Assembly (NCBI GenBank): GCA_037146775.1 | Contig: JBAWWL010000003.1 | Location: forward strand, 66,334-130,333 | Reading direction: 5' to 3' | Source: Candidatus Omnitrophota bacterium | GTDB lineage: Bacteria > Omnitrophota > Gorgyraeia > Duberdicusellales > 4484-171 | Length of the DNA: 64,000 bases | Notes under the pieces: generated by a model | What the model was told of the DNA's origin: nothing | Database searches by the model: none | Seen by the model: the letters and a program-made list of their open reading frames with translations, nothing else | Program-made: the position numbers and the translations under genes | Shown: positions 2,922 to 60,215 of the stretch, one piece after another | Numbering within the stretch: the stretch's first letter is position 1 | Layout of the letters: the number at the start of each line of letters is the position of its first letter

Positions 2922-4226
2922 ATGGCAAAGAATTTATCTATACCTCTCTTAGATTTAAAACGCGAATATGCTTTCTTAAAGAAAAGTATCGATCGAGAGC
3001 TCAAAAGCTGCTTTGCTCATCAGGCCTGGATTCTGGGAGAAAAAGTAACCCAATTTGAAAATCAAGTCGCCAAGTATTTGGATACAAAACATGCCATTGG
3101 TGTTGCCTCCGGGACAGACGCTCTAATTTTATCTTTACGGGCTTTAGCTATAAAACTTAAAAATAAAGAGTATTTCGACAAAAACGATGAAATTATCACT
3201 ACACCCTTTACTTTTGTCGCTACTGCCGAAGCAATTGTTCGTAGCGGCGCTACGCCTGTGTTTGTAGATATAAACCCCAACACCTTTAATATTGATCCCC
3301 AAGAAATAAAAAAAGCTATCACTAAAAATACCGTAGGTATTATACCGGTGCATCTTTTTGGTTTAGCCTGCCAAATGAATGAAATTTTAAGTATCGCCCG
3401 GGAAAATAATTTATTTATCGTTGAAGACGTCGCCCAAGCTTTTGGAGCCGAATATAGGTCAGAAGTCAGAGGACAGAGGACAGAAGACAGAAAAAAACTG
3501 GGGACTATCGGTAATTGTGGGGCGTTTAGTTTTTTTCCTTCCAAGAACTTAGGTAGTTACGGTGATGCAGGAATGGTTACCACTAACGATCCTAAACTTG
3601 CCGAGTTAATCAAGGTATTGCGGGCTCATGGTCAAACCAAGCAGTACGATGCTGCGTATATCGGTTACAACTCCCGTCTCGATTCTATGCAGGCAGCCAT
3701 ACTCTTGGCTAAGCTAAAATATATCAATAAATTTAACTCTATCCGTATTGCTACTGCGCATAAATATTATCAGGCCTTAAAAGGTATCAAAAGTATCCAA
3801 CTCCCACCGATATTCGATGTCTCTGGCCATCGACTTCCGACCTCTGACCTCTGTCTTCTGTCTTCTGGTCTCCAGCCTCTGACCTCTGACGTCTGTCCTC
3901 TGTCTTCTGGTCTCCAACCTCTGATCTCTGACGTCTGTCGTCTGACTTCTGAATCCTCCCACGTCTACAACCTCTACACCATCAAAGTTTCTAGCCAGGT
4001 CCGCGATAAACTCCTAAGTTTTTTAAACACCAAAGGTATCGGCGCGCGCGTATATTACCCTGTTGCTCTTCACCAAATGAAAGCCTTCAAAAATGCCAAG
4101 ATTATAGGGAGCCTGCAAAATAGCGAAGAAGCTACCAAACAAGTAATTTCTTTACCCGTCCACCCCTTTTTAAAACCGCAAGAAATAAAATTAGTTATTC
4201 AAACAATAACTGAAGCAAGCCAATAA
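2922..4226 (+). CDS. DegT/DnrJ/EryC1/StrS-family PLP aminotransferase (WbpE-like), carrying two in-frame repeat insertions
   Basis: Conserved DegT blocks (ITTPFTFVATAEAI, IVEDVAQAFGA, FSFFPSKNLGSYGDAG, HVYNLYTI). It is about 40-50 aa longer than usual because of heptamer-repeat-encoded inserts at 3456-3492 and 3836-3952. Confidence 0.75.
   Translation: MAKNLSIPLLDLKREYAFLKKSIDRELKSCFAHQAWILGEKVTQFENQVAKYLDTKHAIGVASGTDALILSLRALAIKLKNKEYFDKNDEIITTPFTFVATAEAIVRSGATPVFVDINPNTFNIDPQEIKKAITKNTVGIIPVHLFGLACQMNEILSIARENNLFIVEDVAQAFGAEYRSEVRGQRTEDRKKLGTIGNCGAFSFFPSKNLGSYGDAGMVTTNDPKLAELIKVLRAHGQTKQYDAAYIGYNSRLDSMQAAILLAKLKYINKFNSIRIATAHKYYQALKGIKSIQLPPIFDVSGHRLPTSDLCLLSSGLQPLTSDVCPLSSGLQPLISDVCRLTSESSHVYNLYTIKVSSQVRDKLLSFLNTKGIGARVYYPVALHQMKAFKNAKIIGSLQNSEEATKQVISLPVHPFLKPQEIKLVIQTITEASQ
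3456..3492 (+). repeat. heptanucleotide tandem repeat (GTCAGAG/GACAGAA units), forward orientation, in frame inside the DegT gene
   Basis: Five consecutive 7-nt units encode SEVRGQRTEDRK. This is the same unit family as 52271-52430. Confidence 0.7.
3836..3952 (-). repeat. heptanucleotide tandem repeat array, inverted copy (CTCTGAC/TTCTGTC units), in frame inside the DegT gene
   Basis: About 16 units that are the reverse complement of GTCAGAG/GACAGAA. Read on the - strand they give the RTEDRGQ-type peptide (antisense ORF 3777..3962). Confidence 0.7.
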
Positions 4227-4255: not shown

Positions 4256-4397
4256 ATGAAAGAAGTTGATATTACTATTATTGGTGCGGGAGTGGTAGGT
4301 TTGGCAATTGCCGCAAGACTTGCCAAAGTAAACCGTTCTCTATACGTGATAGAAAGGCATGATTCTTTTGGCCAGGAGACTAGCTCAGGGAATTGAA
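4256..4397 (+). pseudogene. truncated duplicate of the N-terminus of the FAD-dependent oxidoreductase gene at 5977..7122
   Basis: Encodes MKEVDITIIGAGVVGLAIAARLAKVNRSLYVIERHDSFGQETSSGN then a stop. The first ~55 nt are near-identical to 5983-6037, and the sequence diverges after that. Confidence 0.6.
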
Positions 4398-4504
4398 TAT
4401 ACAGAGGCCGCAGCATTCCCTATCTTACATAATTTACCTTGTATTATAGCCAATATAGCTATATTATATCCTTGGATATTAGCCATATATAAAAAAAATC
4501 TGTT

Positions 4505-5836
4505 ATGAAAAGAGACTTGGAAAGAGATTTATTCAATTGGAAAGAATGCAAAGATAGGCTGCCATTATTATTGCGCGGCGCGCGGCAAGTAGGTAAAAGT
4601 TATATTGTAGAAGAGTTTGGGAAGAAGGCCTTTAAAAATATAGTTATCGTTAATTTTGAATTTAGGCCTGAACTTAAACAATGTTTTACTACACTTGACC
4701 CCGTTGAAATTATTAATAAGCTGCAGCTGCTTACGGGTGAAGTCATAGAAGCAGAAAATACTTTGCTTTTTCTCGATGAGATACAGGAATGCCCCAATGC
4801 AATAATGGCTTTACGGTATTTCAAGGAAAAGCATGATCGGCTTGCCGTTATCGGGGCAGGTTCATTGATGGAATTTGCTCTTAATAATTCAAGTTTTAAA
4901 ATGCCGGTAGGAAGAGTGCAGTTTATATATCTTGAGCCTTTATCGTTTGGCGAGTTTTTGACGGCATCCGGGAATGAACTGTTGCGGAGTCATCTGCGGG
5001 AAATACGATTGAGCAGCGTATTTGAAAACACGGTACACCAGAAGTTGATGGATTTGTTGCGGGTATATCTTATTGTAGGAGGTATGCCGGCAGTGGTTAA
5101 AGAATATCTTGATAACAGAAACTTTTTAAATTGCCAGCGAATTCAAAATTCTTTACTGCAAGCGTATCGGAATGATTTTGGGAAATATGCTAAGACTTCT
5201 GAACAGAAATATTTACAAAAAGTATTAGATGAAGCTCCGCGGCTTGTTGGCGATCGCATTAAGTATTCGAATATCGATGCTGATAGTAAATCAAGAGATA
5301 TTAAACAGGCGCTTAACCTTTTAAAATTAACCGGTATTATTTATCCGGTATATGCAACTAGCGCTTCAGGGCTTCCTTTGGAAGCGCAAGTTAATGAAAT
5401 GAAATTTAAGTTAAATTTTCTTGATGTAGGTCTAATGCAAAATGCATGCGGTTTACAATCAGAACTTACATTAACGAACGATTTTATTCAGATTAATTCC
5501 GGCGCTGTAACGGAGCAGTTTATCGGCCAGGAATTAAGGGCCCATTATGATAGTTATTTAAAGCGAGGCCTTTTTTTCTGGGCGCGTGATAAAAAAAACA
5601 GTTCAGCTGAAGTTGACTATGTTATCGCGGTAGATTCCTTAATACTGCCGGTAGAGGTTAAGGCAGGCAAGACCGGCACGCTTAAGTCACTAAAGCTGTT
5701 TATGGAAGAAAAGAAGTCATTGTTTGGCGTGCGCTTTTCGCAGGAGAAGTTATCTTTGTATGATAAAGTATTAACATTGCCGTTATATATGACAGAGCAG
5801 ATAAAAAGATTAGTTCGGGAAGCAGGCAGCCTATAA
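4505..5836 (+). CDS. AAA-family ATPase (COG1373 / DUF4143-type)
   Basis: Walker A motif GARQVGKS, a Walker B-like LLFLDEIQ, and a length and architecture typical of the predicted ATPase (AAA+) with a C-terminal DUF4143 domain. Confidence 0.65.
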   Translation: MKRDLERDLFNWKECKDRLPLLLRGARQVGKSYIVEEFGKKAFKNIVIVNFEFRPELKQCFTTLDPVEIINKLQLLTGEVIEAENTLLFLDEIQECPNAIMALRYFKEKHDRLAVIGAGSLMEFALNNSSFKMPVGRVQFIYLEPLSFGEFLTASGNELLRSHLREIRLSSVFENTVHQKLMDLLRVYLIVGGMPAVVKEYLDNRNFLNCQRIQNSLLQAYRNDFGKYAKTSEQKYLQKVLDEAPRLVGDRIKYSNIDADSKSRDIKQALNLLKLTGIIYPVYATSASGLPLEAQVNEMKFKLNFLDVGLMQNACGLQSELTLTNDFIQINSGAVTEQFIGQELRAHYDSYLKRGLFFWARDKKNSSAEVDYVIAVDSLILPVEVKAGKTGTLKSLKLFMEEKKSLFGVRFSQEKLSLYDKVLTLPLYMTEQIKRLVREAGSL

Positions 5837-17853: not shown

Positions 17854-18843
17854 ATGGTTATGAAAGACTTATTCAAAGATAAAGTAGTACTTATCACCGG
17901 CGGTACCGGTTCGTTTGGTAAGAAATTTACCGAGATTGTCTTAAAAAATTATAAACCCAAGAAACTTATCATTTTCAGTCGTGATGAGATGAAGCAGTAT
18001 GAAATGAGCAAAATTTTTAATCAAGAAAATATCCGTTATTTTGTCGGCGATGTGCGCGATGCAGATAGGCTTCATCGTGCACTTAACAGAGTCAATATTA
18101 TTGTACATGCTGCAGCTTTAAAAATAGTTCCTACCGCAGAGTATAATCCTTTTGAAGCCGTCAAAACAAATGTTATTGGCGCCGAAAACGTTATAAACAT
18201 GGCGATCGATAATGGTATCGAAAAGGTGATTGCTTTAAGCACAGATAAAGCAGCTAACCCCATAAATCTTTATGGAGCCACTAAGCTTTGCGCAGAGAAA
18301 ATGTTTGTTGCCGCTAATAATTATTCTCCACTTGGTACAAAATTTAGCGTGGTGCGTTACGGTAATGTTTTTGGTTCGCGTGGCAGCGTTGTGCCATTTT
18401 TTAAAGAATGTAAAAAGAAAGGTGTAGTACCCATAACTGATAAGCACATGACAAGATTTTGGATAACGCTTGAACAGGGAGTGGATTTTGTGCTTCAATC
18501 ATTGAAAGATATGAATGGTGGTGAGATATTTGTTCCTAAGATATCCAGCATGAAAGTCGTCGATTTAGCAAAAGCAATATGTCCAGAATGTAAGCAGGAA
18601 ATAGTCGGTATTCGCGCGGGAGAAAAACTTCATGAAACTCTGGTGCCTAAGGATGACGGCATACATACTTACGAATATGGCGACAGATTTATTACTTATC
18701 CTTATGTCGTTTTGCATAAAAATAAAAAAGATGGCGGTAAGCCCTTAGGTTTAAATTTTGATGGATACAGAAGCGATAATAATACCAAATGGCTTTCTGT
18801 CGAGCAGTTGAGGCAGATGGTGGAGAACGATGCCAAAACTTGA
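17854..18843 (+). CDS. pseB: UDP-N-acetylglucosamine 4,6-dehydratase (inverting), PseB/CapD-like
   Basis: VLITGGTGSFGKKF...KKLIIFSRDEMKQYEM...FVGDVRD is highly characteristic of PseB/FlaA1. Confidence 0.8.
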   Translation: MVMKDLFKDKVVLITGGTGSFGKKFTEIVLKNYKPKKLIIFSRDEMKQYEMSKIFNQENIRYFVGDVRDADRLHRALNRVNIIVHAAALKIVPTAEYNPFEAVKTNVIGAENVINMAIDNGIEKVIALSTDKAANPINLYGATKLCAEKMFVAANNYSPLGTKFSVVRYGNVFGSRGSVVPFFKECKKKGVVPITDKHMTRFWITLEQGVDFVLQSLKDMNGGEIFVPKISSMKVVDLAKAICPECKQEIVGIRAGEKLHETLVPKDDGIHTYEYGDRFITYPYVVLHKNKKDGGKPLGLNFDGYRSDNNTKWLSVEQLRQMVENDAKT

Positions 18844-20089
18844 AGTTATTCCTTATGGCCGGCAATCCATTGATGAAAAAGATATTAGGGTAGTCATTGA
18901 TGTTTTAAGATCTGATTGGCTCACTCAAGGCCCAAAGATAAAAGAATTTGAATCAGCGCTTTGCCAGTATACAGGCGCTAAGTATGCAGTAGTGGTTTCA
19001 AATGGTACAGCAGCGCTGCATCTTGCTTGCCTTGCCGCTGGTATCGGTAAGGGCGATCGGGTTATTACTTCTCCCATAACCTTTGCCGCTTCGGCAAACT
19101 CTATTCTTTATGCAGGTGGCACGCCGGTTTTTATCGACGTAGACCAAGAGATTGTCAATATCAGTCCAGAAAAGATTCAACATTACATAGAACATACCAA
19201 CATAAAACTTAACAACAAACTTAAGGCCATCATTCCTGTCCATTTTGCCGGTTACCCTTGCGAGATGGAAAAAATTTACCAGATAGCCAAAAAATATAAC
19301 TTAATTATCATTGAAGACGCAGCGCATGCTTTAGGCGCAAAATATAAAATTAACGAATTAACGGGTTCACTGGTTAAAGAATTTAATAAGAAAAACAAAG
19401 AAAAATGGATAAAAATAGGTAGTTGTCAACACTCCAATATGACTATCTTTAGTTTTCATCCGGTAAAATCTATTACTACTGGTGAAGGAGGAGCAGTTTT
19501 AACTAATAATAAAGAATTATATGAAAAACTTCTGATGTTACGTAATCACGGGATTACCCGTAATCATAAGAAATTCGTTAATCCGTTAATGCGCAAATCC
19601 GTTAATCCTTTATGGTATTATGAAATGCAGATGCTCGGGTTTAATTACCGTATCACCGATATTCAGGCGGCATTAGGAATCTCTCAGCTTAAAAAATTAG
19701 ACACATTTATAACAAAACGGCACCATATTGCGCAAGTTTACGATAAGGCCTTTAGATGTAACCCATATTTTACAATTCCTACCGAGCGAGAATATTTGTA
19801 TTCAGCATATCATCTTTATCAAATACGTCTTAATGACAAACTCATGATACAAAAAACAAATATATTTCGCGAACTGATTAAGCAGGGGATACGAACACAA
19901 GTGCACTATATCCCAGTTTATCTGCACCCGTATTATCAGCAACGCAACTTCAAGAAAGGTTTGTGTCTTCAGGCGGAAGATTTTTATAAAAGAGAAATAA
20001 GTTTACCTATTTATCCAACTTTGAATATTAAGCAAACAAAATATATAATTAATAATCTTTTAAGTATATGCAAAAAATATAATGGATAA
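18830..20089 (+). CDS. pseC: UDP-4-amino-4,6-dideoxy-N-acetyl-beta-L-altrosamine transaminase, PseC-like (DegT family)
   Basis: IPYGRQSIDEKDIRVVIDVLRSDWLTQGPK N-terminus typical of PseC, with DegT motifs. It carries an internal ~40-aa insertion relative to typical PseC. Confidence 0.75.
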   Translation: MPKLEVIPYGRQSIDEKDIRVVIDVLRSDWLTQGPKIKEFESALCQYTGAKYAVVVSNGTAALHLACLAAGIGKGDRVITSPITFAASANSILYAGGTPVFIDVDQEIVNISPEKIQHYIEHTNIKLNNKLKAIIPVHFAGYPCEMEKIYQIAKKYNLIIIEDAAHALGAKYKINELTGSLVKEFNKKNKEKWIKIGSCQHSNMTIFSFHPVKSITTGEGGAVLTNNKELYEKLLMLRNHGITRNHKKFVNPLMRKSVNPLWYYEMQMLGFNYRITDIQAALGISQLKKLDTFITKRHHIAQVYDKAFRCNPYFTIPTEREYLYSAYHLYQIRLNDKLMIQKTNIFRELIKQGIRTQVHYIPVYLHPYYQQRNFKKGLCLQAEDFYKREISLPIYPTLNIKQTKYIINNLLSICKKYNG

Positions 20090-42868: not shown

Positions 42869-43950
42869 TAAAAGTTGGTATCGACATACAATCAACCTTA
42901 GGCAAAAAAACGGGAATCGGCTATTATACAAAAAATTTGGTGGAACACATAAAAGATTATAAAGACCTTGAACTCTATTTTTATCAAGACCCCGTGAAGC
43001 ATGATTATAATACATTGCAGAGAATGCTGTGGGAAAATATCCGTGTTTCTAGGTATGCAAGGAATAGCAAAATCGACTTGCTGCACGTTCCTGGGTTTGC
43101 TGGGCCATTAGCGAAAGGAAAATATCAAAAAATTACTACCGTTCATGATCTAATCGGAATGATTTACCCTGATAATCTTGGTTACGCCAGCCGTTTTTAT
43201 TGGCAAAAGTGGCTCCCGTGTTGCATTAAAAATTCGGATTGTATTATCGCTGATTCACAGAATACCAAGGCGGATATTATAAAATTTTTGGATATTGTAC
43301 CCGATAAAATAAGAGTAATTCCGCTTGCTGTAGATTCTTACTTTAAGTCAATAGAGAAGTCCGATAATTATCGAACATTACTAAAAAAATATGGCATAAC
43401 CGGAAAATATATTTTGAATGTCGGTACCATCGAGCCACGTAAAAATATACCTATGCTTATAGAGTCTTTTTCTGACTGTCTGAAAGAAACGAACTTGGAT
43501 GGCATTGTTCTTGTTATTGTCGGCAAGAAAGGGTGGGATTATAAGCGATGCTACCAGAAAGTATTAGATTTAAATCTTAAGGATAGAATTGTGTTTTGTG
43601 ATTATATTTCCGAAGAACACCTTTCCATATTATATAACTTTGCCGAAGCATTTGTTTACCCATCTTTATATGAAGGGTTTGGTTTACCTGTGTTAGAGGC
43701 CATGAGTTGTGCTGTGCCCGTAATATGCTCTGAAACTTCTTCGTTGCCGGAGATAACCGGTAAATCCGCGATACTTATCGACCCGAATAATCGAGATATG
43801 CTTAAAAATGCGCTATTGAAACTGTTGACTGATGAAAAACTAAAGAATGAAATGTCATGTAAAGCGCTTGAGGAATCAAAAAAATTTTCTTGGAAGAAAA
43901 CAGCACTAGAAACCATTAAAATATACCGAGAGGTATATAATGAAGCTTAG
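42865..43950 (+). CDS. GT4-family glycosyltransferase (GT-B, glycosyl transferases group 1)
   Basis: EGFGLPVLEAMSCAVPVICSETSSLPEI is the canonical GT4 EX7E region. The ATG at 42865 gives an ATGA overlap with the upstream stop. Confidence 0.8.
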   Translation: MIKVGIDIQSTLGKKTGIGYYTKNLVEHIKDYKDLELYFYQDPVKHDYNTLQRMLWENIRVSRYARNSKIDLLHVPGFAGPLAKGKYQKITTVHDLIGMIYPDNLGYASRFYWQKWLPCCIKNSDCIIADSQNTKADIIKFLDIVPDKIRVIPLAVDSYFKSIEKSDNYRTLLKKYGITGKYILNVGTIEPRKNIPMLIESFSDCLKETNLDGIVLVIVGKKGWDYKRCYQKVLDLNLKDRIVFCDYISEEHLSILYNFAEAFVYPSLYEGFGLPVLEAMSCAVPVICSETSSLPEITGKSAILIDPNNRDMLKNALLKLLTDEKLKNEMSCKALEESKKFSWKKTALETIKIYREVYNEA

Positions 43951-44627: not shown

Positions 44628-45752
44628 ATGAGGTATGTTTTTAAAAAAGTTAGATATAAATTTCTTGTATTTATAATAGATTCTTTAGGCTACGTCATTT
44701 TTTTCTTCCCTCGTTTCTTCAAAAAAAATACCCCATTATCACCCAAGAAAATACTTGTGGTACGCGTGGATCACATAGGTGATTTTGTGTGCACACTACC
44801 TGTTTTTGAGAATCTAAAATTAAACTTTCCTCAGAGCAAAATCAGTGTTTTAATCAACTCTTCCTCAGTATCCTTAGCAAAACTTAGTCCGCATATTGAC
44901 GAAATAATTTCGGTTAACCCATTTTGGATGCAAAGGGGTAACAAACGCCTTTCTTTTAGGGAGATATTTAAAGTAATACGTGAACTGCGTGAACAAAATT
45001 TTGATTTAGGTTTTGATATGCGCGGAGATTTTTTCTCAATTGCGCTTATGTTTTTAGGCAGAGTAAGGTATAGGGTGGGGTATGCGGTTACTGGGGGAGG
45101 GTTCTTATTAGGTAAGAATGTTTTATATACTAAGAATATAAATACGGTCGAGCGTAATTTTAATCTATTAAGAAATATCGGCGTTCCGATAAAAAAATCG
45201 AGCATCGAACTTAAATTTAGCGATGAAGATAAAAATATAGTTATGTGTATGTTGCAAGACCTATCACTTAAAGAGCAAAAATCCGTTATTTTACATCCTT
45301 TTGCCGGTACTAAAGCAAAACAATGGAGTGTAAGTAAATTTCAAGAGTTAATTGATCAGCTGCGAAAAGCAAATTTTAATATTTTTGTTATTGGTACCAA
45401 AACCGATACAGAACATTATGATGGAGTATGTGATGTGCGAGGTAGATTTGCCTTATCGCAACTAGCATTTTTTATAAAACATGTAGGGTTTTTTATCGGG
45501 CTTGATTCCGGCCCAGCAAATATCGCTGCCGTACTTGATGTACCGACAATAGTAATTTGTTCCGGCACGAATATCCCAGAGCGCTGGATATTTATCGGCA
45601 AAAATGTTAAGCTGGTTTATCGTGATACCGATTGTAAGCCTTGTGAGCTTAAGATTTGCCCTAAAAACAAGCATTATTGTATGGAGGATATTGGGGTGGG
45701 GGAGGTCATGGGTGAGGTGGATAGGTTGATAGGTGGGTATGTTGATAAGTGA
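44628..45752 (+). CDS. GT9-family glycosyltransferase (ADP-heptose:LPS heptosyltransferase-like)
   Basis: KILVVRVDHIGDFVCTLPVF N-terminal GT9 signature and the C-terminal GLDSGPANIAA region. Confidence 0.7.
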   Translation: MRYVFKKVRYKFLVFIIDSLGYVIFFFPRFFKKNTPLSPKKILVVRVDHIGDFVCTLPVFENLKLNFPQSKISVLINSSSVSLAKLSPHIDEIISVNPFWMQRGNKRLSFREIFKVIRELREQNFDLGFDMRGDFFSIALMFLGRVRYRVGYAVTGGGFLLGKNVLYTKNINTVERNFNLLRNIGVPIKKSSIELKFSDEDKNIVMCMLQDLSLKEQKSVILHPFAGTKAKQWSVSKFQELIDQLRKANFNIFVIGTKTDTEHYDGVCDVRGRFALSQLAFFIKHVGFFIGLDSGPANIAAVLDVPTIVICSGTNIPERWIFIGKNVKLVYRDTDCKPCELKICPKNKHYCMEDIGVGEVMGEVDRLIGGYVDK

Positions 45753-45786
45753 TTAAGTTAGTAGGTGGGTGAATAAGGAGAGTGTC

Positions 45787-46143
45787 ATGGGCGGGAGTTG
45801 GAAAGATTTGGATGTTTGGCGGGAGAGTCATTCTTTAGTTTTACAATTGTACAAATTGGTGAGTACTTTTCCGGCCACAGAAAGATATGCCTTGGTCGAT
45901 CAAATAAAACGGGCGGCATATTCTATACCAGCAAATATTGTTGAAGGCCACTCAAGAAACAGTAAGAAGGAATTTCAACGTTATCTTTATATCTCTAGAG
46001 GTTCCCTAGAGGAGTTAAGGTATTTCTTGTTGTTGGCGAAAGACTTGCATTATATCGATGATGTAATCCATAAAGAATATGAAGATAAATTATCGCGGGT
46101 AAGTAAAATGTTGAATGGTTTGATAAGGTCTTTAACATACTAA
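45787..46143 (+). CDS. four-helix-bundle protein (family formerly called 23S rRNA intervening-sequence protein, TIGR02436)
   Basis: WRESHSLVLQLYKLVSTFPATERYALVDQIKRAAYSIPANIVEGHSR...ISRGSLEELRYFLLLAKDL is the hallmark sequence of this family. An RBS AAGGAGAG precedes the ATG. Confidence 0.8.
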   Translation: MGGSWKDLDVWRESHSLVLQLYKLVSTFPATERYALVDQIKRAAYSIPANIVEGHSRNSKKEFQRYLYISRGSLEELRYFLLLAKDLHYIDDVIHKEYEDKLSRVSKMLNGLIRSLTY

Positions 46144-46175
46144 CATAATAACCTATTAACATAACAACTAAGCCA

Positions 46176-47249
46176 ATGAAAATATTCTTTGATGCTAGAA
46201 TGATTGCGCATGCCGGAATCGGTAGGTATATTCGGGGAATATTGCCGGAGATTGCCAAAGATAAGTCTATTGAATTGTGCTTATTAGGTAACCGAATCCT
46301 TATTGAAAAATTCTTTGATGCACAAAATAGAGTTATTGATTTTAATTATCCTATCTATTCTATCCAAGAACAAATAGGTTTCAAAAAGCTAAAAAGTACC
46401 ATTGGCGACAATCTTCTTCATGTCCCTCACTACAACATTCCGGTTTTTGCACCGTACAATTTGGTTGTAACCATCCATGATCTAATCCATATTCTCTATC
46501 CACAAGGAGCAAGCAGCTATTTTGCGCGTTTCTATATGAATTTTATGATTAGAAAGGTTTTGAGTATGGCAAAAAAAGTGATATGTGTTTCTGGTCACAC
46601 TAAAGAAGCTATTTGTCATAATTATCATGTAGCCGGCACAAATTTGGAGGTAGTTGGGGAAGGCGTTGATGGTAGTTTTTCAAAGATAACAGACGAGGGC
46701 TTTCTGGACGCCATTAAACAGAAATATCACTTACCGGGTAAATTTATTCTGTATGTCGGCAGCATCCGTAAGCACAAGAATATTACAATGCTTTTAGAAG
46801 TATTTTCAAAAATCAGAAAAGAAATGCCCGAGGTATCTTTAGTTCTTGTTGGTAAACTTTCTCAATCCTTTGATTTGAAGCTCGATGGCGTGCATTATCT
46901 GGGCGAGGTCCCTGACGACAAGGAATTAGCAGCAATATATAATCTTTCTTCTGTATTTTGTAATCTCTCGCTTTTTGAGGGTTTTGGCTTAACTATTCTG
47001 GAAGCACAGGCTTGTGGCGTGCCAATAGTTTGTAGCGATATAGCGGTACATCGGGAGACTGGAGGAAACGGTATTCTGGCGGTTCCTCCAAGTAATGTTG
47101 ACCAGATAGCACAAGCTCTATATAATGTTTTAACTAAACAAACCTTTCAAGACATTCTTATCAAGAATGGGCTTGAGAATGTGCAGCGATTCAGCTGGCA
47201 GAAAGCATCCGAAAGGGTGGTAGAGTTATATAGGTTGGTAGGTGGATAG
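46176..47249 (+). CDS. GT4-family glycosyltransferase
   Basis: EGFGLTILEAQACGVPIVCSDIAVHRETGG. Confidence 0.8.
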   Translation: MKIFFDARMIAHAGIGRYIRGILPEIAKDKSIELCLLGNRILIEKFFDAQNRVIDFNYPIYSIQEQIGFKKLKSTIGDNLLHVPHYNIPVFAPYNLVVTIHDLIHILYPQGASSYFARFYMNFMIRKVLSMAKKVICVSGHTKEAICHNYHVAGTNLEVVGEGVDGSFSKITDEGFLDAIKQKYHLPGKFILYVGSIRKHKNITMLLEVFSKIRKEMPEVSLVLVGKLSQSFDLKLDGVHYLGEVPDDKELAAIYNLSSVFCNLSLFEGFGLTILEAQACGVPIVCSDIAVHRETGGNGILAVPPSNVDQIAQALYNVLTKQTFQDILIKNGLENVQRFSWQKASERVVELYRLVGG

Positions 47250-47347
47250 GTTGGCATGTTAGTAGGTTATGGCATTACCAACGTTAAATTTTTACGTATC
47301 AACATAACAACTTAACAACATATTAATCTAACAATATAACAACCAAA

Positions 47348-50184: not shown

Positions 50185-51519
50185 ATGATTATTAAAAGAT
50201 TAGACTACATCAGCGAGTTTTTCCTTTTTGTGCTCATGGTGGGTATTACCGTTAACAACGCTCCCACGGAAGTGGCATCTTATCTTCTTATTTTTATTTT
50301 TTTACTGAAACATATTATTCGTCGCGACATCAAACTGCCCAGCTCCCCAATAAATATATTTTTATGCATGTATTCTGTCGTAGTGCTGGTTACGCTCATA
50401 CACAGTAGTTATTTTGGTGAAAGTATAAAAGGTTTTTCGCGGGTTCCTAAATATATATTTTTATATCTTGCCCTGGTTGAACTTTTTAAAAATGATCTGA
50501 AGCGATTAAATCGTTTTTTTTGGATAATAATGGTTGTTTCTGCGGTTACTTTTATAAATGGTGTATTCCAGAGTATTTTTGGTTTTGATTTTTTCAGGCA
50601 TAACGCCATAGATGGGCCGACATCGTTATGCCGTATCAGCTCATCATTTGTTCATTCTAACGACTTCGGATCTTACATAATTACAGTATTGCCTTTGACA
50701 TTCTTGATATTTTCTTCGCTTATCAGCAAAAGAAAAAGGTTAGCATTATTACCCGTAAGTCTTTTGGGTTTTTATTGCCTTTTAAGAACATCTTCTCGGG
50801 GGGCCTGGCTCGGTTTTCTTATAGCAATAATCATATATTTTTTTATGTATAAGAAAAAAATCGCTATACTTATACCTATTATTTTCATAATTTTGATTAT
50901 GTTTTTGCCTTACGGATTCGAACGCGTAACAAGTATTTTTAAGACTAACCAAGGGACTGTCTGGGAAAGAACCAAGCTTTGGCAGGGTGCGTGGGGTATG
51001 ATAAAAGAACATCCTGTTTTAGGCCTTGGCGTAAACACCTTTTCTAAAAATTTTCCTCAATATAAACCCGCAGATTATCCGGACTTAAGATATGCGCATA
51101 ATTCTTATCTACAGATGTGGGCAGAAATAGGATTGTTAGGGTTAATTATATTTTTAGCTATGCCTTTGACTATTTTGGCTAAAGCTTTCAAGGGTATAAA
51201 AAATGAAATTCCATATACTTCCCGCGGCAAGCTCGCCTCGCTTGAGCTTCGGCGAAGCGGGCCGCGGGGTATTCAGTTCATTCCTCCGAAGCCGAATTCC
51301 CTGCGACAAACTACAGGGTGTTCGGCGGAGGAGAATAAAATAAAAGCTGGTCCCCAAGGTTTAATCCTTTTGGGAGCTGTGTGTGGTTATGTGGGGTTTT
51401 TAGTGCAGAGTGGTATGGATAACAACTTATTTTCTCTTGTCCTTACTACTCTTTTTTGGGTATTCAGTGCTTACATTGTTTCCTGGAATAGTTATCTTGA
51501 AAATAAAAACCATGCCTAA
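50185..51519 (+). CDS. O-antigen ligase / Wzy_C-family membrane protein (WaaL-like), carrying an in-frame repeat-element insertion
   Basis: Polytopic protein with the Wzy_C periplasmic-loop motif YAHNSYLQMWAEIGLLGLIIF. Codons ~347-385 are encoded by GC-rich element A (51222-51337). Confidence 0.65.
   Translation: MIIKRLDYISEFFLFVLMVGITVNNAPTEVASYLLIFIFLLKHIIRRDIKLPSSPINIFLCMYSVVVLVTLIHSSYFGESIKGFSRVPKYIFLYLALVELFKNDLKRLNRFFWIIMVVSAVTFINGVFQSIFGFDFFRHNAIDGPTSLCRISSSFVHSNDFGSYIITVLPLTFLIFSSLISKRKRLALLPVSLLGFYCLLRTSSRGAWLGFLIAIIIYFFMYKKKIAILIPIIFIILIMFLPYGFERVTSIFKTNQGTVWERTKLWQGAWGMIKEHPVLGLGVNTFSKNFPQYKPADYPDLRYAHNSYLQMWAEIGLLGLIIFLAMPLTILAKAFKGIKNEIPYTSRGKLASLELRRSGPRGIQFIPPKPNSLRQTTGCSAEENKIKAGPQGLILLGAVCGYVGFLVQSGMDNNLFSLVLTTLFWVFSAYIVSWNSYLENKNHA
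51222..51337 (+). repeat. GC-rich palindromic MITE-like element A (module 1 plus module 2), in frame within the ligase gene
   Basis: Module 1 CCCGCGGC-AAGCTCGCCTCGCTTGAGCTTCGGCGAAGCGGGC-CGCGGGG is homologous to 60064-60098. Module 2 TCAGTTCATTCCTCCGAAGCCGAATTCC...GTTCGGCGGAGGAGAAT is homologous to the reverse complement of 56694-56783. Confidence 0.65.
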
Positions 51520-52402
51520 AAATTACTCTTTAGCGGCAGTCATACTTACTTGCAATTCGGAAAAGAAACTAGAGCAATGTTTAGCTTCTCTGTCTGGGTG
51601 GGTAGACGAAATTATATTGGTTGATGGTCAAAGTCATGACCGCACCATTGCGATTGCTGAACGTTTTGGGGCCAAAATATATTCGCACGCATTTTTAGGG
51701 GCTTTTTCGAAAGAAAGGAATTTTGGAATAGAAAAAGCAAATAGCCAATGGGTTTTGCAGTTAGATAGTGACGAAGTGGTAACTCAGGACTTTAAGAACA
51801 CCTGTGATGAGGCCTTGCCAAGCACTTTATGCGTTTCGTTTAAGTTTCTGCGCAAGAACAACTTTTTGGGGCATTTTTTCCAGTATGGCGGCTGGCATCA
51901 TTGGTCGCAGCACTTACTTAAAAAAGGTTATGCTCATTATGAGGGCAGAGTCCATGAGCGCATGGTGGTAGACGGTGAGGTGGGGTTGATTGAGGCGGAT
52001 ATATTGCATTTTCCGTTCGACAGCCTTACAGAATTCATCGAGCGGCAAAATCGTTACACGACTTTACAAGCCCAAGATATCCTGGATGGCGAAAAAGACC
52101 TCACCATGAAAAAAATTAAATATAATATTATCTGGAAACCGCTGAAACTTTTTAAAAAAATGTACCTGAATAAAAAAGGCTATAAAGAAGGAATGTATGG
52201 ATTTGTTTTTTCGGTATTATTTGCCTGGGTACATTTTGTAAAATGGGCGAAGGTGTGGGAAGTGTACAGTAAGACAGAAGTCAGAGGTCAGAAGACAGAA
52301 GTTAGGGACAGAGGTCAGAGAACAGAAGACAGAGGACAGGGGTCAGAGGACAGAGGTCAGAGAACAGAAGACAGAAAACAGAGGGCGGAAGACAGAGGAT
52401 AG
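51512..52402 (+). CDS. GT2-family glycosyltransferase (KdtX/WaaE-like) with a heptamer-repeat-encoded C-terminal tail
   Basis: AAVILTCNSEKKLEQCL...LQLDSDE GT-A motifs. The last ~45 aa (SKTEVRGQKTEVRDRGQRTEDRGQGSEDRGQRTEDRKQRAEDRG) are encoded by the heptamer array. Confidence 0.65.
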   Translation: MPKNYSLAAVILTCNSEKKLEQCLASLSGWVDEIILVDGQSHDRTIAIAERFGAKIYSHAFLGAFSKERNFGIEKANSQWVLQLDSDEVVTQDFKNTCDEALPSTLCVSFKFLRKNNFLGHFFQYGGWHHWSQHLLKKGYAHYEGRVHERMVVDGEVGLIEADILHFPFDSLTEFIERQNRYTTLQAQDILDGEKDLTMKKIKYNIIWKPLKLFKKMYLNKKGYKEGMYGFVFSVLFAWVHFVKWAKVWEVYSKTEVRGQKTEVRDRGQRTEDRGQGSEDRGQRTEDRKQRAEDRG

Positions 52403-52430
52403 AGGGCAGAAGGCAGAGATCTGGCATCTG
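52271..52430 (+). repeat. heptanucleotide tandem repeat array (~23 units of GACAGAG/GTCAGAG/AACAGAA)
   Basis: A 7-nt periodicity visible by eye. It runs through the stop codon (52400-52402) of the GT2 gene and ~28 nt beyond, and is the same family as 3456-3492 and 3836-3952. Confidence 0.75.
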
Positions 52431-52452
52431 TGTCAAATCTTAGTTTTAAACT

Positions 52453-56643: not shown

Positions 56644-56693
56644 TCCTAACATTCTTTTCTGTCGATTTTCTGATATAATAAAAAGATACAATT

Positions 56694-56783
56694 TATTCTC
56701 CTCCGCCGAATATCCTGTGGCAAGCTACAGAGAATTCAGCTTCGGAGAAATGAACTGGATATCCTTCAGAGTTCATAGGGGGA
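56694..56783 (-). repeat. GC-rich MITE-like element B (module 2, inverted relative to element A)
   Basis: Its reverse complement, CCAGTTCATTTCTCCGAAGCTGAATTCTCTGTAGCTTGCCACAGGATATTCGGCGGAGGAGAAT, aligns to 51270-51337. Confidence 0.65.
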
Positions 56784-56799
56784 GTATGTGGAGTTTCAT

Positions 56800-57900
56800 A
56801 TGATGGATAAAAACAAAAAAAGCACAATATTTTTAACAGGCGCCACTGGACTGTTGGGTTCTTATTTATTAAAAATTCTCCTTGAAAATGATAATAAAGT
56901 TTATGCGCTCGTAAGAAGCAGAAAGAATAAAAGTGGCTACCAACGAGTTATTGATCTTTTGAAATTTTGGGACGATTCAATATCAGCCACTACATTAAAA
57001 AATCTTATAGCCATAGAAGGAGATATTACCTTAGACGATTTTGGATTTGAACAAAAAGATACACTAAAAGTGATTAGTTCAGAGGTTGAAGTAATTTTTC
57101 ACTGCGCAGCGTTAACAAGTTTTATAGCTCCCCTAGCTATACTTAAAAAAATAAATATAGAAGGAACGAAAAAAGTTTTTGACTTTGCATTAGGCTGCAA
57201 GAAAATTAAAAAAATAAATCATATAAGCACAGCTTTTGTGGTAGGAAATAAAAACGATATTAATTTTAACGAAGGGATGTTGAAGCTAGGACAAGGTTTT
57301 TATAATGATTATGAGCGAACTAAATACGAAGCAGAAGAGTTAATGGATGGTTATAGGAAAAAAGGAATAAATATATCAGTCTTTCGTCCAAGCCTAATTA
57401 TAGGAGAATCTAAGGATGGTAAAACTAATAATTTTAACTTTTTCTATGAGCCACATCGTTTCTTCTCGCAAGAACTTTATGCAGATTTCCCCATGAATTT
57501 AGAGTGCTCGCTAAACCTTATTAATATAGATACTGCAACTAAAGCAATTTTTTTACTTGGTTGTAGAGATGAGTCAGCAACGTATCATATAGTTTCACCG
57601 GATGACACAAATAATTATTTTTTTGCAAAGTTGTCATCAGAATATTTTGGATTCAAAATGCCAAAATTTACGCCTTTAGAAAAATTTGACTTTACGAAAT
57701 GGACATTTACACAAAAAGTGTTAGCCACCCCTTTCATTCCTTATTGCAACTATAAAAATAAGTTTATTTCTTCCTATGCCTCAAACATTCTAAAAGAATA
57801 CAAATTTGAATATCCAAAAATAGATAGTAAAAATCTGATTAGGACATTTGAGTATTGTGATAGAGTAGGATTCATTAAAAAGAAAACATACAAAATATGA
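56800..57900 (+). CDS. SDR-family NAD-dependent epimerase/dehydratase or thioester-reductase-like protein (NAD_binding_4-like)
   Basis: IFLTGATGLLGSYLL Rossmann motif, and YxxxK (YERTKYEAE). The in-frame ATG at 56800 is preferred over the GTG at 56788. Confidence 0.55.
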   Translation: MMDKNKKSTIFLTGATGLLGSYLLKILLENDNKVYALVRSRKNKSGYQRVIDLLKFWDDSISATTLKNLIAIEGDITLDDFGFEQKDTLKVISSEVEVIFHCAALTSFIAPLAILKKINIEGTKKVFDFALGCKKIKKINHISTAFVVGNKNDINFNEGMLKLGQGFYNDYERTKYEAEELMDGYRKKGINISVFRPSLIIGESKDGKTNNFNFFYEPHRFFSQELYADFPMNLECSLNLINIDTATKAIFLLGCRDESATYHIVSPDDTNNYFFAKLSSEYFGFKMPKFTPLEKFDFTKWTFTQKVLATPFIPYCNYKNKFISSYASNILKEYKFEYPKIDSKNLIRTFEYCDRVGFIKKKTYKI

Positions 57901-60039: not shown

Positions 60040-60215
60040 TAATTTCGTTTATCGTCTATCGGGTGCTCGCCTCGCTAAAGCTTCAGCGAAGCGGGCGCGA
60101 CTCGTTTCGGTTGCGTTAATCGTCAACCGGCTTTGTTTCTTATGATATTTCTGACTCAACCGTTATACGATAGACGATACGAGCTGCGCCTGCCTCGCCG
60201 GCAAGGCGGGCAACC
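60040..60215. repeat. structured GC-rich repeat region C (module 1 copy nested inside an ATCGTCTATCG / CGATAGACGAT inverted repeat)
   Basis: 60047-60060 pairs with 60168-60183. Module 1 at 60064-60098 is homologous to 51231-51268, and a further hairpin GCCTGCCTCGCC-GGCAAGGCGGGC lies at 60189-60212. Confidence 0.55.

Follow-up and report, generated by a model that had tools for sequence, protein, structure and literature searches.

We describe here a 132-nt GC-rich insert that stands in frame in an O-antigen-ligase-family gene of a Candidatus Omnitrophota bacterium and is probably a non-coding, selfish mosaic of GC-rich stem-loops, tolerated by its host gene and working in the manner of the Rickettsia palindromic elements (RPE) or of the repetitive extragenic palindromic (REP) elements. 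The gene is part of a stretch of 64,000 nt (assembly GCA_037146775.1, contig JBAWWL010000003.1, positions 66,334 to 130,333), which is called the window in the following and gives the numbering of the coordinates. According to our interpretation the insert would be built of two layers, an outer framework of ~100 nt restricted to this lineage and an inner hairpin core of 30 nt, which stands within the framework stem and is found across phyla. A preliminary description made from the letters of this DNA had regarded the segment as one repeat family of this genome, but actually two things could be told apart: the lineage framework, with two copies in 83 kb (the window with ~10 kb on each side), and the cross-phylum core.

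The GC-rich, palindromic and in-frame character of the segment, together with its sequence and peptide, was found as the preliminary description had given it, and only the extent had to be refined from 51222-51337 to 51202-51333. The boundaries can slide by at most 8 nt across an 8-nt repeat, 51210-51341 being an equivalent choice. The GC content of the insert is 60% (51210-51333; 61% for the segment 51222-51337), that of the ligase open reading frame (ORF) without the insert is 35% and that of the whole window 37%. The 44 extra residues (NEIPYTS...CSAEE) are present only in the window ligase and in none of the 20 aligned homologues (394-436 aa); they sit between KGIK and NKIK, where the flanks align with no other gap. 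The orthologous DNA is likewise uninterrupted at this site, GGCATAAAA being followed directly by AAGAAAATAAAAGCC in locus L003 and GGCATAAAG by AATAAAATCAAT in locus L004, and the window has 132 more bases there. The same peptide in homologous ligases, or the lack of further copies beyond chance, had been named beforehand as what would speak against a mobile element. Neither the homologues nor the DNA of the two orthologous loci carry the peptide, and when the six translations of the insert were compared as a concatenated query with ~5.8 billion protein clusters, the ligase itself was the sole match; thus the peptide is not a feature of the family. Both modules of the insert (the nested hairpin, module 1, and the three-tier hairpin, module 2) do recur in the window. 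The length of the insert is a multiple of three and the frame used has no stop codon, so the ORF stays open and the insert is presumably translated; three of its six frames are free of stop codons.

The host gene looks functional. Pfam Wzy_C was recognized at residues 192-324 (E = 2.3e-28; 99.3 bits, the cut-off being 31.7), and the about 150 homologues are mostly of ~400 aa and mostly from Omnitrophota. The AlphaFold model, for which the alignment was used (mean pLDDT 81, pTM 0.82), could be superimposed on WaaL determined by cryo-electron microscopy (7tpg_B; Foldseek E = 4.5e-7, TM 0.59/0.64). On the basis of the Wzy_C domain and of the modelled WaaL-like polytopic fold the host protein is a member of the O-antigen ligase family. 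The ratio of nonsynonymous to synonymous substitution (dN/dS) is 0.15 against the closest orthologue and all 52 invariant columns of the alignment with the 20 homologues are kept, therefore the gene looks functional and its lineage is under purifying selection. An identical ligase gene is present in the 180-kb NCBI contig CAZTHQ010000030.1 of a metagenome-assembled genome (MAG; GCA_964613555.1) and in a contig of a Logan assembly, two sources that may share the same reads.

In the model the extra residues form a low-confidence loop (residues 341-383, pLDDT <50), which would link the third-last and the second-last transmembrane helices (307-335 and 385-411). Helix 307-335 comes after the invariant H305-N-S-Y-L-Q motif, and helix 390-411 is followed by the invariant D412/N414. 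Lys and Arg residues flank the loop, and because of these flanks and of the topology of WaaL it is likely to be cytoplasmic, remote from the periplasmic catalytic region.

Comparison of the sequences reveals that the insert is a mosaic, in which a framework element of ~100 nt, made up of the termini and module 2, holds the nested 30-nt core (Table 1). A folding prediction of both modules had been proposed as a check, and the predicted folding of 51200-51345 is strong on both strands (-65 and -65.8 kcal/mol, z = -5.3 and -6.0 against shuffles). The Rfam scan of the whole window at gathering thresholds gave no match, and the scan of 51150-51400 by E-value gave chance-level matches only (E >=0.38); ARAGORN detected no tRNA, and the promoter and terminator scan of 49.5-61 kb found nothing at the insert.

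The junctions can be read in two ways. The flanking octamers AATGAAAT and AATAAAAT match at seven of eight positions and the empty site of L004 has AATAAAAT once, which could indicate an imperfect target duplication; the octamers could also be sequence owned by the element, or the sign of a target preference. What makes the duplication ambiguous is that copy B of the framework, described below, carries the similar TATGAAAC and AATAAATT at the corresponding positions and has the G in common with the insert (copy A). An equally good reading is an insertion free of duplication, in which an element GAAAT...GGAGGAGAAT would have been placed at AAT^AAAAT.

Module 2 had been reported to recur as an inverted intergenic copy, and this copy, now delimited at 56692-56764 (73 nt, 81% complementary; blast pieces of E = 3e-5 and 1e-4), turned out to lie within a full-length copy B of the framework that has no module 1. 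Over its whole length copy B can be aligned with the insert, the alignment running from ATGAAAY-TCCAYATACTYCCC by way of module 2 as far as GGAGGAGAATAAA. Both have the left terminus TCCAYATACTYCCC, and identity outside the middle is ~81-84%; in the middle a different small hairpin, ATGAACT...AGTTCAT, replaces the outer stem and the core. Copy B fills the intergenic spacer of the GT87 and epimerase genes, 5.4 kb from the insert and in opposite orientation; its end GGAGTTTCAT reaches directly up to the epimerase ATG at 56800 and supplies a GGAG 6 nt ahead of it. The differences of the two copies on the 5' arms of module 2 are C-to-T changes, which keep G.U pairs on the + strand as far as two sequences can tell. 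Outside this contig the strict pattern of module 2 gave 0 matches in the species-representative genomes, a collection that does not contain the source genome, and a looser pattern gave nine matches in JGI metagenomes and five in IMG/VR, all of them chance-like, in unrelated and mostly GC-rich contexts. The framework appears to be restricted to this lineage in the collections searched.

Module 1 had also been claimed to recur. This holds for its 30-nt core, found again at 60066-60095, and not for the outer CCCGCGG/CCGCGGG stem. The stretch of similarity is 32 nt long (60065-60096, identity 29/32; blastn-short E = 8e-6 in the 64-kb window); the stems of the two core copies are identical and all three differences are in the loop. 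No further copy of the framework or of the core was detected in the window and 10 kb on each side of it. Two Logan contigs of run SRR12676968 end or start inside the second core, at 60095 and 60068, which would fit further identical core copies elsewhere in the sample and is only suggestive. The contigs of this run break also at a 27-nt exact repeat near 4267-4293 (about 4289), and position 43598 was noted as well.

Table 1. Features of the ligase gene, of its insert and of the related elements in the window
Feature	Position	Strand	Basis or remark
Host gene: O-antigen-ligase family (Wzy_C / WaaL-type) membrane protein, 444 aa	50185..51519	+	Pfam, homologues, AlphaFold/Foldseek
In-frame insert, 132 nt = 44 codons, encoding NEIPYTSRGKLASLELRRSGPRGIQFIPPKPNSLRQTTGCSAEE	51202..51333	+	Missing from homologues and from orthologous DNA
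Octamer AATGAAAT	51202..51209	+	Imperfect 8-nt target duplication, or (GAAAT part) 5' end of the element
Left terminus TCCATATACTTCCC, common to copy B	51210..51223	+	Alignment of copies A and B
Nested hairpin: outer 7-bp stem CCCGCGG (51221-51227) / CCGCGGG (51262-51268) enclosing CAAG and the 30-nt core	51221..51268	+	Sequence; predicted folds pair the arms on both strands
Hairpin core, 30 nt, CTCGCCTCGCT-TGAGCTTCG-GCGAAGCGGG, here translated LASLELRRSG	51232..51261	+	nhmmer profile and stems-only pattern
Spacer TATTCAGTTCATT between nested hairpin and module 2		+	Read from the sequence
Module 2, three-tier hairpin CCTCC/GGAGG, GCCGAA/TTCGGC, CCCTG/CAGGG, with GAA bulge	51283..51333	+	Fold predictions
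Partner octamer AATAAAAT, belonging to the gene	51334..51341	+	Sequence comparison
Example tryptic peptide of the predicted insert translation, GIQFIPPKPNSLR			
Copy B of the framework, termini and module 2	56692..56799	-	Alignment, blastn, gene calls
130-nt unit with perfect 12-nt inverted repeat TATCGTCTATCG / CGATAGACGATA (60050-61 and 60168-79)	60050..60179	+	Holds the second core copy
Second core copy CTCGCCTCGCT-AAAGCTTCA-GCGAAGCGGG, intergenic, histidine-kinase/response-regulator genes	60066..60095	+	blastn-short; foreign profile E = 4e-10
CCTGCCTCGCCGGCAAGGCGGG, 'empty' member of the second GC-hairpin type (CCTGCC...GGCRGG), ten bases past the 130-nt unit	60189..60210	+	Sequence comparison

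The distribution of the core was mapped on species-representative genomes (596 Gb) with a stems-only pattern, in which the two stems were fixed and a loop of 5-13 nt was left free. At least 120 loci were obtained, when about 2-3 would be expected by chance according to our own arithmetic (21 fixed bases, nine spacings, two strands, equal base frequencies). Among the matches listed, the median GC content of the loci is 0.42 and Patescibacteria predominate as hosts, with single-cell genomes and the closed Levybacteria chromosome OY970292.1 among them; the core is also carried by four Omnitrophota MAGs, one WOR-3 MAG (three contigs), one Lentimicrobiaceae (Bacteroidota) MAG (seven contigs), Nitrospirota, Planctomycetota, Raymondbacteria and two cultured Chelativorans species. 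Chance probably accounts for about eight GC-rich loci, in which the loops are odd. Several MAGs labelled 'Gammaproteobacteria' evidently belong to the candidate phyla radiation (CPR), e.g. the best relatives of the AtpD of locus L077 are from Curtissbacteria.

The 21 stem bases, fixed by the pattern, are the same across phyla in the copies found, and near-variants of the stems are almost absent, with three cases in 0.96 Mb of loci. Although the pattern imposed no loop sequence, AGCT is present in 67-75 of the 79 copies with a 9-nt loop, the consensus of which is R-A-A-G-C-T-Y-Y-G; another 21 copies have a 6-nt loop, mostly TCGCGG or GAGTCG, and hairpins with the same loop and different stems also occur. 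An nhmmer profile built from 81 foreign copies recognized the core of the insert (E = 5e-10) and the second copy (4e-10), and nothing else in the window. In IMG/VR the core was found at eight loci, corresponding to five distinct sequences, all GC-rich, and a viral scan with the loop forced to AGCTTC yielded one chance match. A description of this core was not found in the full-text literature, which was searched also with the core sequence and covers subscription journals thinly, so that an earlier description is possible.

Core copies are found in intergenic DNA and in loops that belong to other GC hairpins, at junctions within arrays of tandem hepta- or octamers, and also inside conserved genes, in frame. 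Their flanks tend to C-Y-Y-G at -4..-1 and to C-C-G-G at +1..+4 (G at -1 in 79/119, C at -4 in 63/119, C at +1 in 74/119, and G at +3/+4). Exact direct repeats of >=5 nt flank 12 of 119 copies and are mostly pre-existing tandem hepta- or octamers; exact inverted flanks, present in 15 of 119, are other GC hairpins that hold the core in their loop, as in CCTGCCTG followed by the core and CCGGCAGGCAGG. Both features are above controls. They are minority features and most copies have neither, hence a constant target duplication and a constant outer stem around the core were rejected; the fold test of such an outer stem was weak (43% vs 31%, with an imperfect control). To judge from these loci, the nested architecture of the ligase insert is typical of the core family.

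The second core copy of the window is also part of a larger arrangement. The 130-nt unit that holds it contains a terminator-like hairpin, GGTTG...CAACC, with a T-rich run after it; this unit (60050-60179) looks more like a classical MITE (miniature transposable element with inverted repeats) than the ligase insert does, and no target duplication is evident. Hairpins similar to the empty one next to it were found in L037, L122, L104, L125 and other loci, and in Patescibacteria MAG loci the second GC-hairpin type is found in an empty form as well as in one whose loop holds the core. At L058 CCTGCCTCGCCGG, the core and CAGGCGGG stand in succession. In the Omnitrophota MAG DAOVKU01 (L087, about 1000-1140) the core stands in frame in a 567-aa ORF, in the linker of an oxidoreductase and a hexapeptide-acyltransferase domain, next to another GC hairpin, GTCACCGAAGGTGGC, and to a TCCATAT motif, which the terminus of the window element has as well. 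A tRNA-like sequence flanks the core at L100 (about 5214-5290) and L062 (about 4380-4520); at L100 the core comes after GGTCCCTTCGTCTAGTGGTTAG, which resembles the 5' half of tRNA-Glu. ARAGORN calls no tRNA at these two loci, and the hairpin may have disrupted tRNA genes or pseudogenes there.

About 45% of the core copies are located within genes, in frame, all six frames being represented: 57 of 121 foreign copies are more than 30 nt inside ORFs of >=120 aa, and 52 of 121 remain by a stricter rule (open run of >=150 aa with >=25 aa on each side). In-gene copies are in sense orientation in 27 cases vs antisense in 25, and those between co-directional genes in 12 vs 13, thus a strand-specific RNA role of the core was rejected for want of any orientation bias relative to transcription. 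Genic or not, a core copy leaves on average five of the six frames open, and genic copies in the frame where the commonest loop would give a TGA have other loops. Since about five of six reading frames of the core are open, many insertions into protein loops would survive selection. The Pfam-recognized hosts include RpoB, LeuRS, ArgRS (two copies), Lon, Rho, a CopA-type P-type ATPase, PolX and PrmC, and another host is a Wzy_C-containing protein of a Patescibacteria single-cell genome. When the AtpD of L077 and the CopA of L040 were aligned to solved structures, insertions of 15 residues appeared exactly at the core peptide, which in CopA stands immediately before the GDGINDAPAL motif.

The AtpD gene of L077 also offered a comparison of a filled and an empty site. 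Its DNA reads ACAGACCCA, then the 27-nt core CCCGCTTCGCCCGCGAAGCGAGGCGAG, then CAAACCCACTGACC, and two orthologues, P0121 (94% identical) and P0123 (88%), read ACCCACAAACCCAC(T/C)GACC, with neither the 27 nt nor a duplicated flank; the flanks of filled and empty sites are identical (...ACCCA/CAAACCC...). As far as this one pair shows, the core is inserted as a precise unit, with no target duplication, at the junction of tandem octamers. The AtpD of P0122 (92% identical) has a larger and different hairpin insert at the same point, and more distant orthologues lack even the surrounding octamer repeats; this site is an insertion hot spot of a gene used as a phylogenomic marker. In the AtpD proteins of P0122, P0124, P0125, P0169 and P0223 (Curtissbacteria) one surface loop of the N-terminal domain of the beta subunit carries different inserts of 10-40 residues (columns 70-105).

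These observations could be brought together as follows. The insert would have landed in an A-rich run of lysine codons of the ligase gene (AAT^AAAAT) and would persist there as harmless. The core might move as single-stranded hairpin DNA, free of duplication, by a process of HUH/Y1 type, like that of the IS200/IS605 TnpA or of the REP-associated tyrosine transposases (RAYT), or by a similar one; the putative mobilising enzyme would be supplied in trans, and the framework element might be mobilised in a similar way. We put forward more tentatively, and with considerable doubt, that the core is a single, horizontally spreading and sequence-conserved hairpin replicator, not described before and among the smallest mobile DNA units, which would insert precisely and duplication-free into hairpin loops, into the junctions of short tandem arrays and into essential genes (rpoB, atpD, aminoacyl-tRNA synthetases, lon, rho) across Patescibacteria, Omnitrophota and at least five other phyla and be moved in trans by a widespread or phage-borne enzyme yet to be recognised.

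Several points weigh against our interpretation. Only two framework copies and two core copies are found in 83 kb, and no transposase, RAYT or reverse transcriptase was recognized among the called genes of this ~83 kb, nor could an enzyme be linked to the core. The duplication-free mechanism is deduced from one filled/empty pair, and it is the open frame that suggests translation of the insert. The foreign stems were fixed by the search pattern, so their invariance is in part given by construction. Furthermore, the nearest ligase orthologue is only 85% identical and provides no close pair of filled and empty alleles, which leaves the timing and the junction of the insertion ambiguous.

It might be supposed that no transposition was needed, and that templated repair or template switching through A-rich microhomology copied a B-like sequence from 5.4 kb away, the hairpins being by-products of palindrome-prone replication. 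Copy B is indeed near and inverted and shares ATGAAA and AATAAA microhomologies with the ligase site, no transposase is present in 83 kb, and the repeats flanking the core family vary in length or are absent. Nevertheless, the identity of copies A and B is only ~81-84% and their middle modules are not the same, so that neither can have been copied recently from the other; a 30-nt core whose stems are identical in many phyla and in viral contigs cannot have originated anew in every case, and the AtpD pair is a clean insertion of unit length. We consider this explanation unlikely.

A functional RNA element that tunes the glycan operon, e.g. an RNase III/E site, a translational pause, an attenuator or a stabiliser in the ligase mRNA and, for copy B, in the 5' leader of the epimerase, appears rather improbable. 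The orthologous ligases manage without the insert, copies A and B have opposite orientations relative to co-directional genes, and the core shows no orientation bias inside or between genes. The very strong predicted folding (z about -5 to -6) would suit such a role; however, Rfam gave no match and the terminator scan was empty at the insert. The C-to-T differences of A and B that keep G.U pairs on one strand could also be taken in its favour, but at copy B this strand is the antisense one. What remains to be mentioned on its side is the GGAG of copy B, 6 nt before the start codon of the epimerase, and the terminator-like hairpin that adjoins the second core copy in an intergenic spacer.

That the 44 residues have become an exapted protein segment, an Arg/Pro/Ser/Gly-rich cytoplasmic loop that binds a partner or has a regulatory function and is kept by selection, we hold for quite improbable. 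The frame is open in a gene the rest of which is under purifying selection, and the net positive charge of the loop suits a cytoplasmic position; however, three of the six insert frames are open regardless of use, no other protein has the peptide, the loop is disordered in the model, and the same DNA is non-coding and inverted at 56.7 kb, with the core also at 60.07 kb. An assembly or binning artefact, in which a chimeric join or a collapsed repeat would have put foreign GC-rich sequence into the gene, is hardly credible in spite of the metagenomic source and of the Logan contigs that break at repeats of the region, since the MAG and Logan contigs are identical across the whole gene, the frame is kept exactly and the flanks align perfectly with orthologues, and the same kind of insert is found in single-cell genomes, a closed chromosome and cultured isolates.

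The RPE families are, to our knowledge, confined to Rickettsia and its relatives. RPEs are 105-146 nt long and are fused internally into coding sequences (PMC3184786). The 132-nt palindromic insert agrees with the RPE of Ogata et al. in size and location, being in frame in a functional gene and having an intergenic second copy, and, if translated as presumed, in the surface loop that it adds to the protein. However, the hosts are here Omnitrophota and Patescibacteria and not Rickettsia, and the insert is a mosaic with a 30-nt core common to many phyla; the likeness is one of behaviour. REP sequences are, as far as we know, specific to a species or genus, unlike the core, which is the same sequence in several phyla. 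They are high-copy, GC-rich imperfect palindromes of 20-40 bp, tagged at one of their ends by GTAG or CGTC (PMC3733652). The core resembles them and the bacterial interspersed mosaic elements (BIME) formed from REPs: it is an imperfect GC-rich palindrome of 27-30 nt, in which a C/A mismatch and T.G pairs are conserved, it combines into mosaics, and it inserts free of duplication, as expected for hairpin-specific single-strand transposition. On the other hand, 52-57 of 121 copies are inside long ORFs and not extragenic, the flanks carry neither the GTAG nor the CGTC tag, and there is no RAYT gene among the called genes of the ~83 kb around the insert.

The term 'MITE-like', used in the preliminary description, is not supported in its strict sense. 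MITEs are defined by terminal inverted repeats and target duplications (PMC3184786), and here the terminal inverted repeats are not convincing (in copies A and B the ends GAAAYTCCAYATAC... and ...GGCGGAGGAGAAT are complementary only imperfectly, over 6-7 nt, ATTC(T)CC), the 8-nt duplication is ambiguous and the core makes no duplication at the site where its insertion could be followed directly. Examples of bacterial MITEs are QMITE1 and QMITE2 of Coxiella (PMC5896051) and the Nezha and Correia elements (PMC3184786). They are likewise small, non-autonomous and strongly folding and overlap ORFs, and QMITE2 contains a REP and has direct repeats that vary in length (7-11 nt); the ligase insert differs by its ends and the core by its duplication-free insertion. 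The GC clusters of yeast mitochondria, among them an optional in-frame cluster in var1, are a further parallel, and so are the repetitive hairpin-forming elements of sponge mitochondria (PMC2800124). In these organelles, too, short GC-rich palindromes of an AT-rich genome occupy intergenic and at times, in frame, coding positions and are nested, but here the hosts are bacterial chromosomes of many phyla and the sequence family is another one. The insert and its core work like RPE or REP/BIME elements and are filed under neither family, because the location and tag of REPs and the inverted repeats of MITEs are missing and the host is an Omnitrophota bacterium. Of the earlier designation 'REP/RPE type' the way of working could be kept, the family membership not.

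The setting of the window is one long co-directional glycan-synthesis locus, with genes of glycosyltransferases, PMT/YfhO-type membrane transferases, sugar-nucleotide enzymes, a flippase and an initiating sugar transferase. Heptamer arrays had been reported in frame in glycan genes, and they are there, of GTCAGAG / GACAGAG type, at 3451-3502, 3819-3951 and 52270-52442. The first two, mutually inverted, are in a DegT aminotransferase ORF (2922-4226), where the second array makes an insert of ~33 aa relative to the paralogue at 18830-20089; the third forms the C-terminal tail (EVRGQKTEVRDRGQRTEDRG...) of the GT2 gene adjoining the ligase. In other phyla the 30-nt core was observed at the unit junctions of such arrays (L134, L105, L040, L077). 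Octamer arrays (ATAGGTTG type and its complement) at 45713-45766, 46132-46177 and 47230-47344 form long-range inverted repeats, and bracket a small gene (45787-46143) resembling bAvd and the proteins of 23S rRNA intervening sequences (IVS), together with the next gene. A second bAvd/IVS-like gene stands upstream of the window (L015 8549-8944), and others are in the atp operons of L077 and L155, adjoining AtpD genes with hairpin inserts; a link of these genes, frequent in such genomes, to the core was rejected, since jackhmmer found them at only four of 120 core loci, with no enrichment. On the same contig, also upstream of the window, precomputed Pfam matches assign an intein and a LAGLIDADG endonuclease domain to a 922-aa UDP-glucose/GDP-mannose dehydrogenase gene (L015 1728-4496).

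For the ligase the finding would mean that a WaaL-type enzyme tolerates an addition of 44 residues in a C-terminal loop, which is likely cytoplasmic. It is also a warning for annotation, that such GC-rich 'low-complexity' stretches in the proteins of Omnitrophota and CPR bacteria are inserted DNA and not native protein. If the core family is as widespread as it seems, it would be a bacterial counterpart, at a far larger phylogenetic scale, of the RPEs of Rickettsia and of the mitochondrial GC clusters. It could then serve as a marker of recent insertions and of horizontal transfer among ultra-small bacteria, it would be a source of innovation in protein loops as well as of alignment artefacts in phylogenomic marker genes, and it might provide a handle for finding the enzyme that moves the core.

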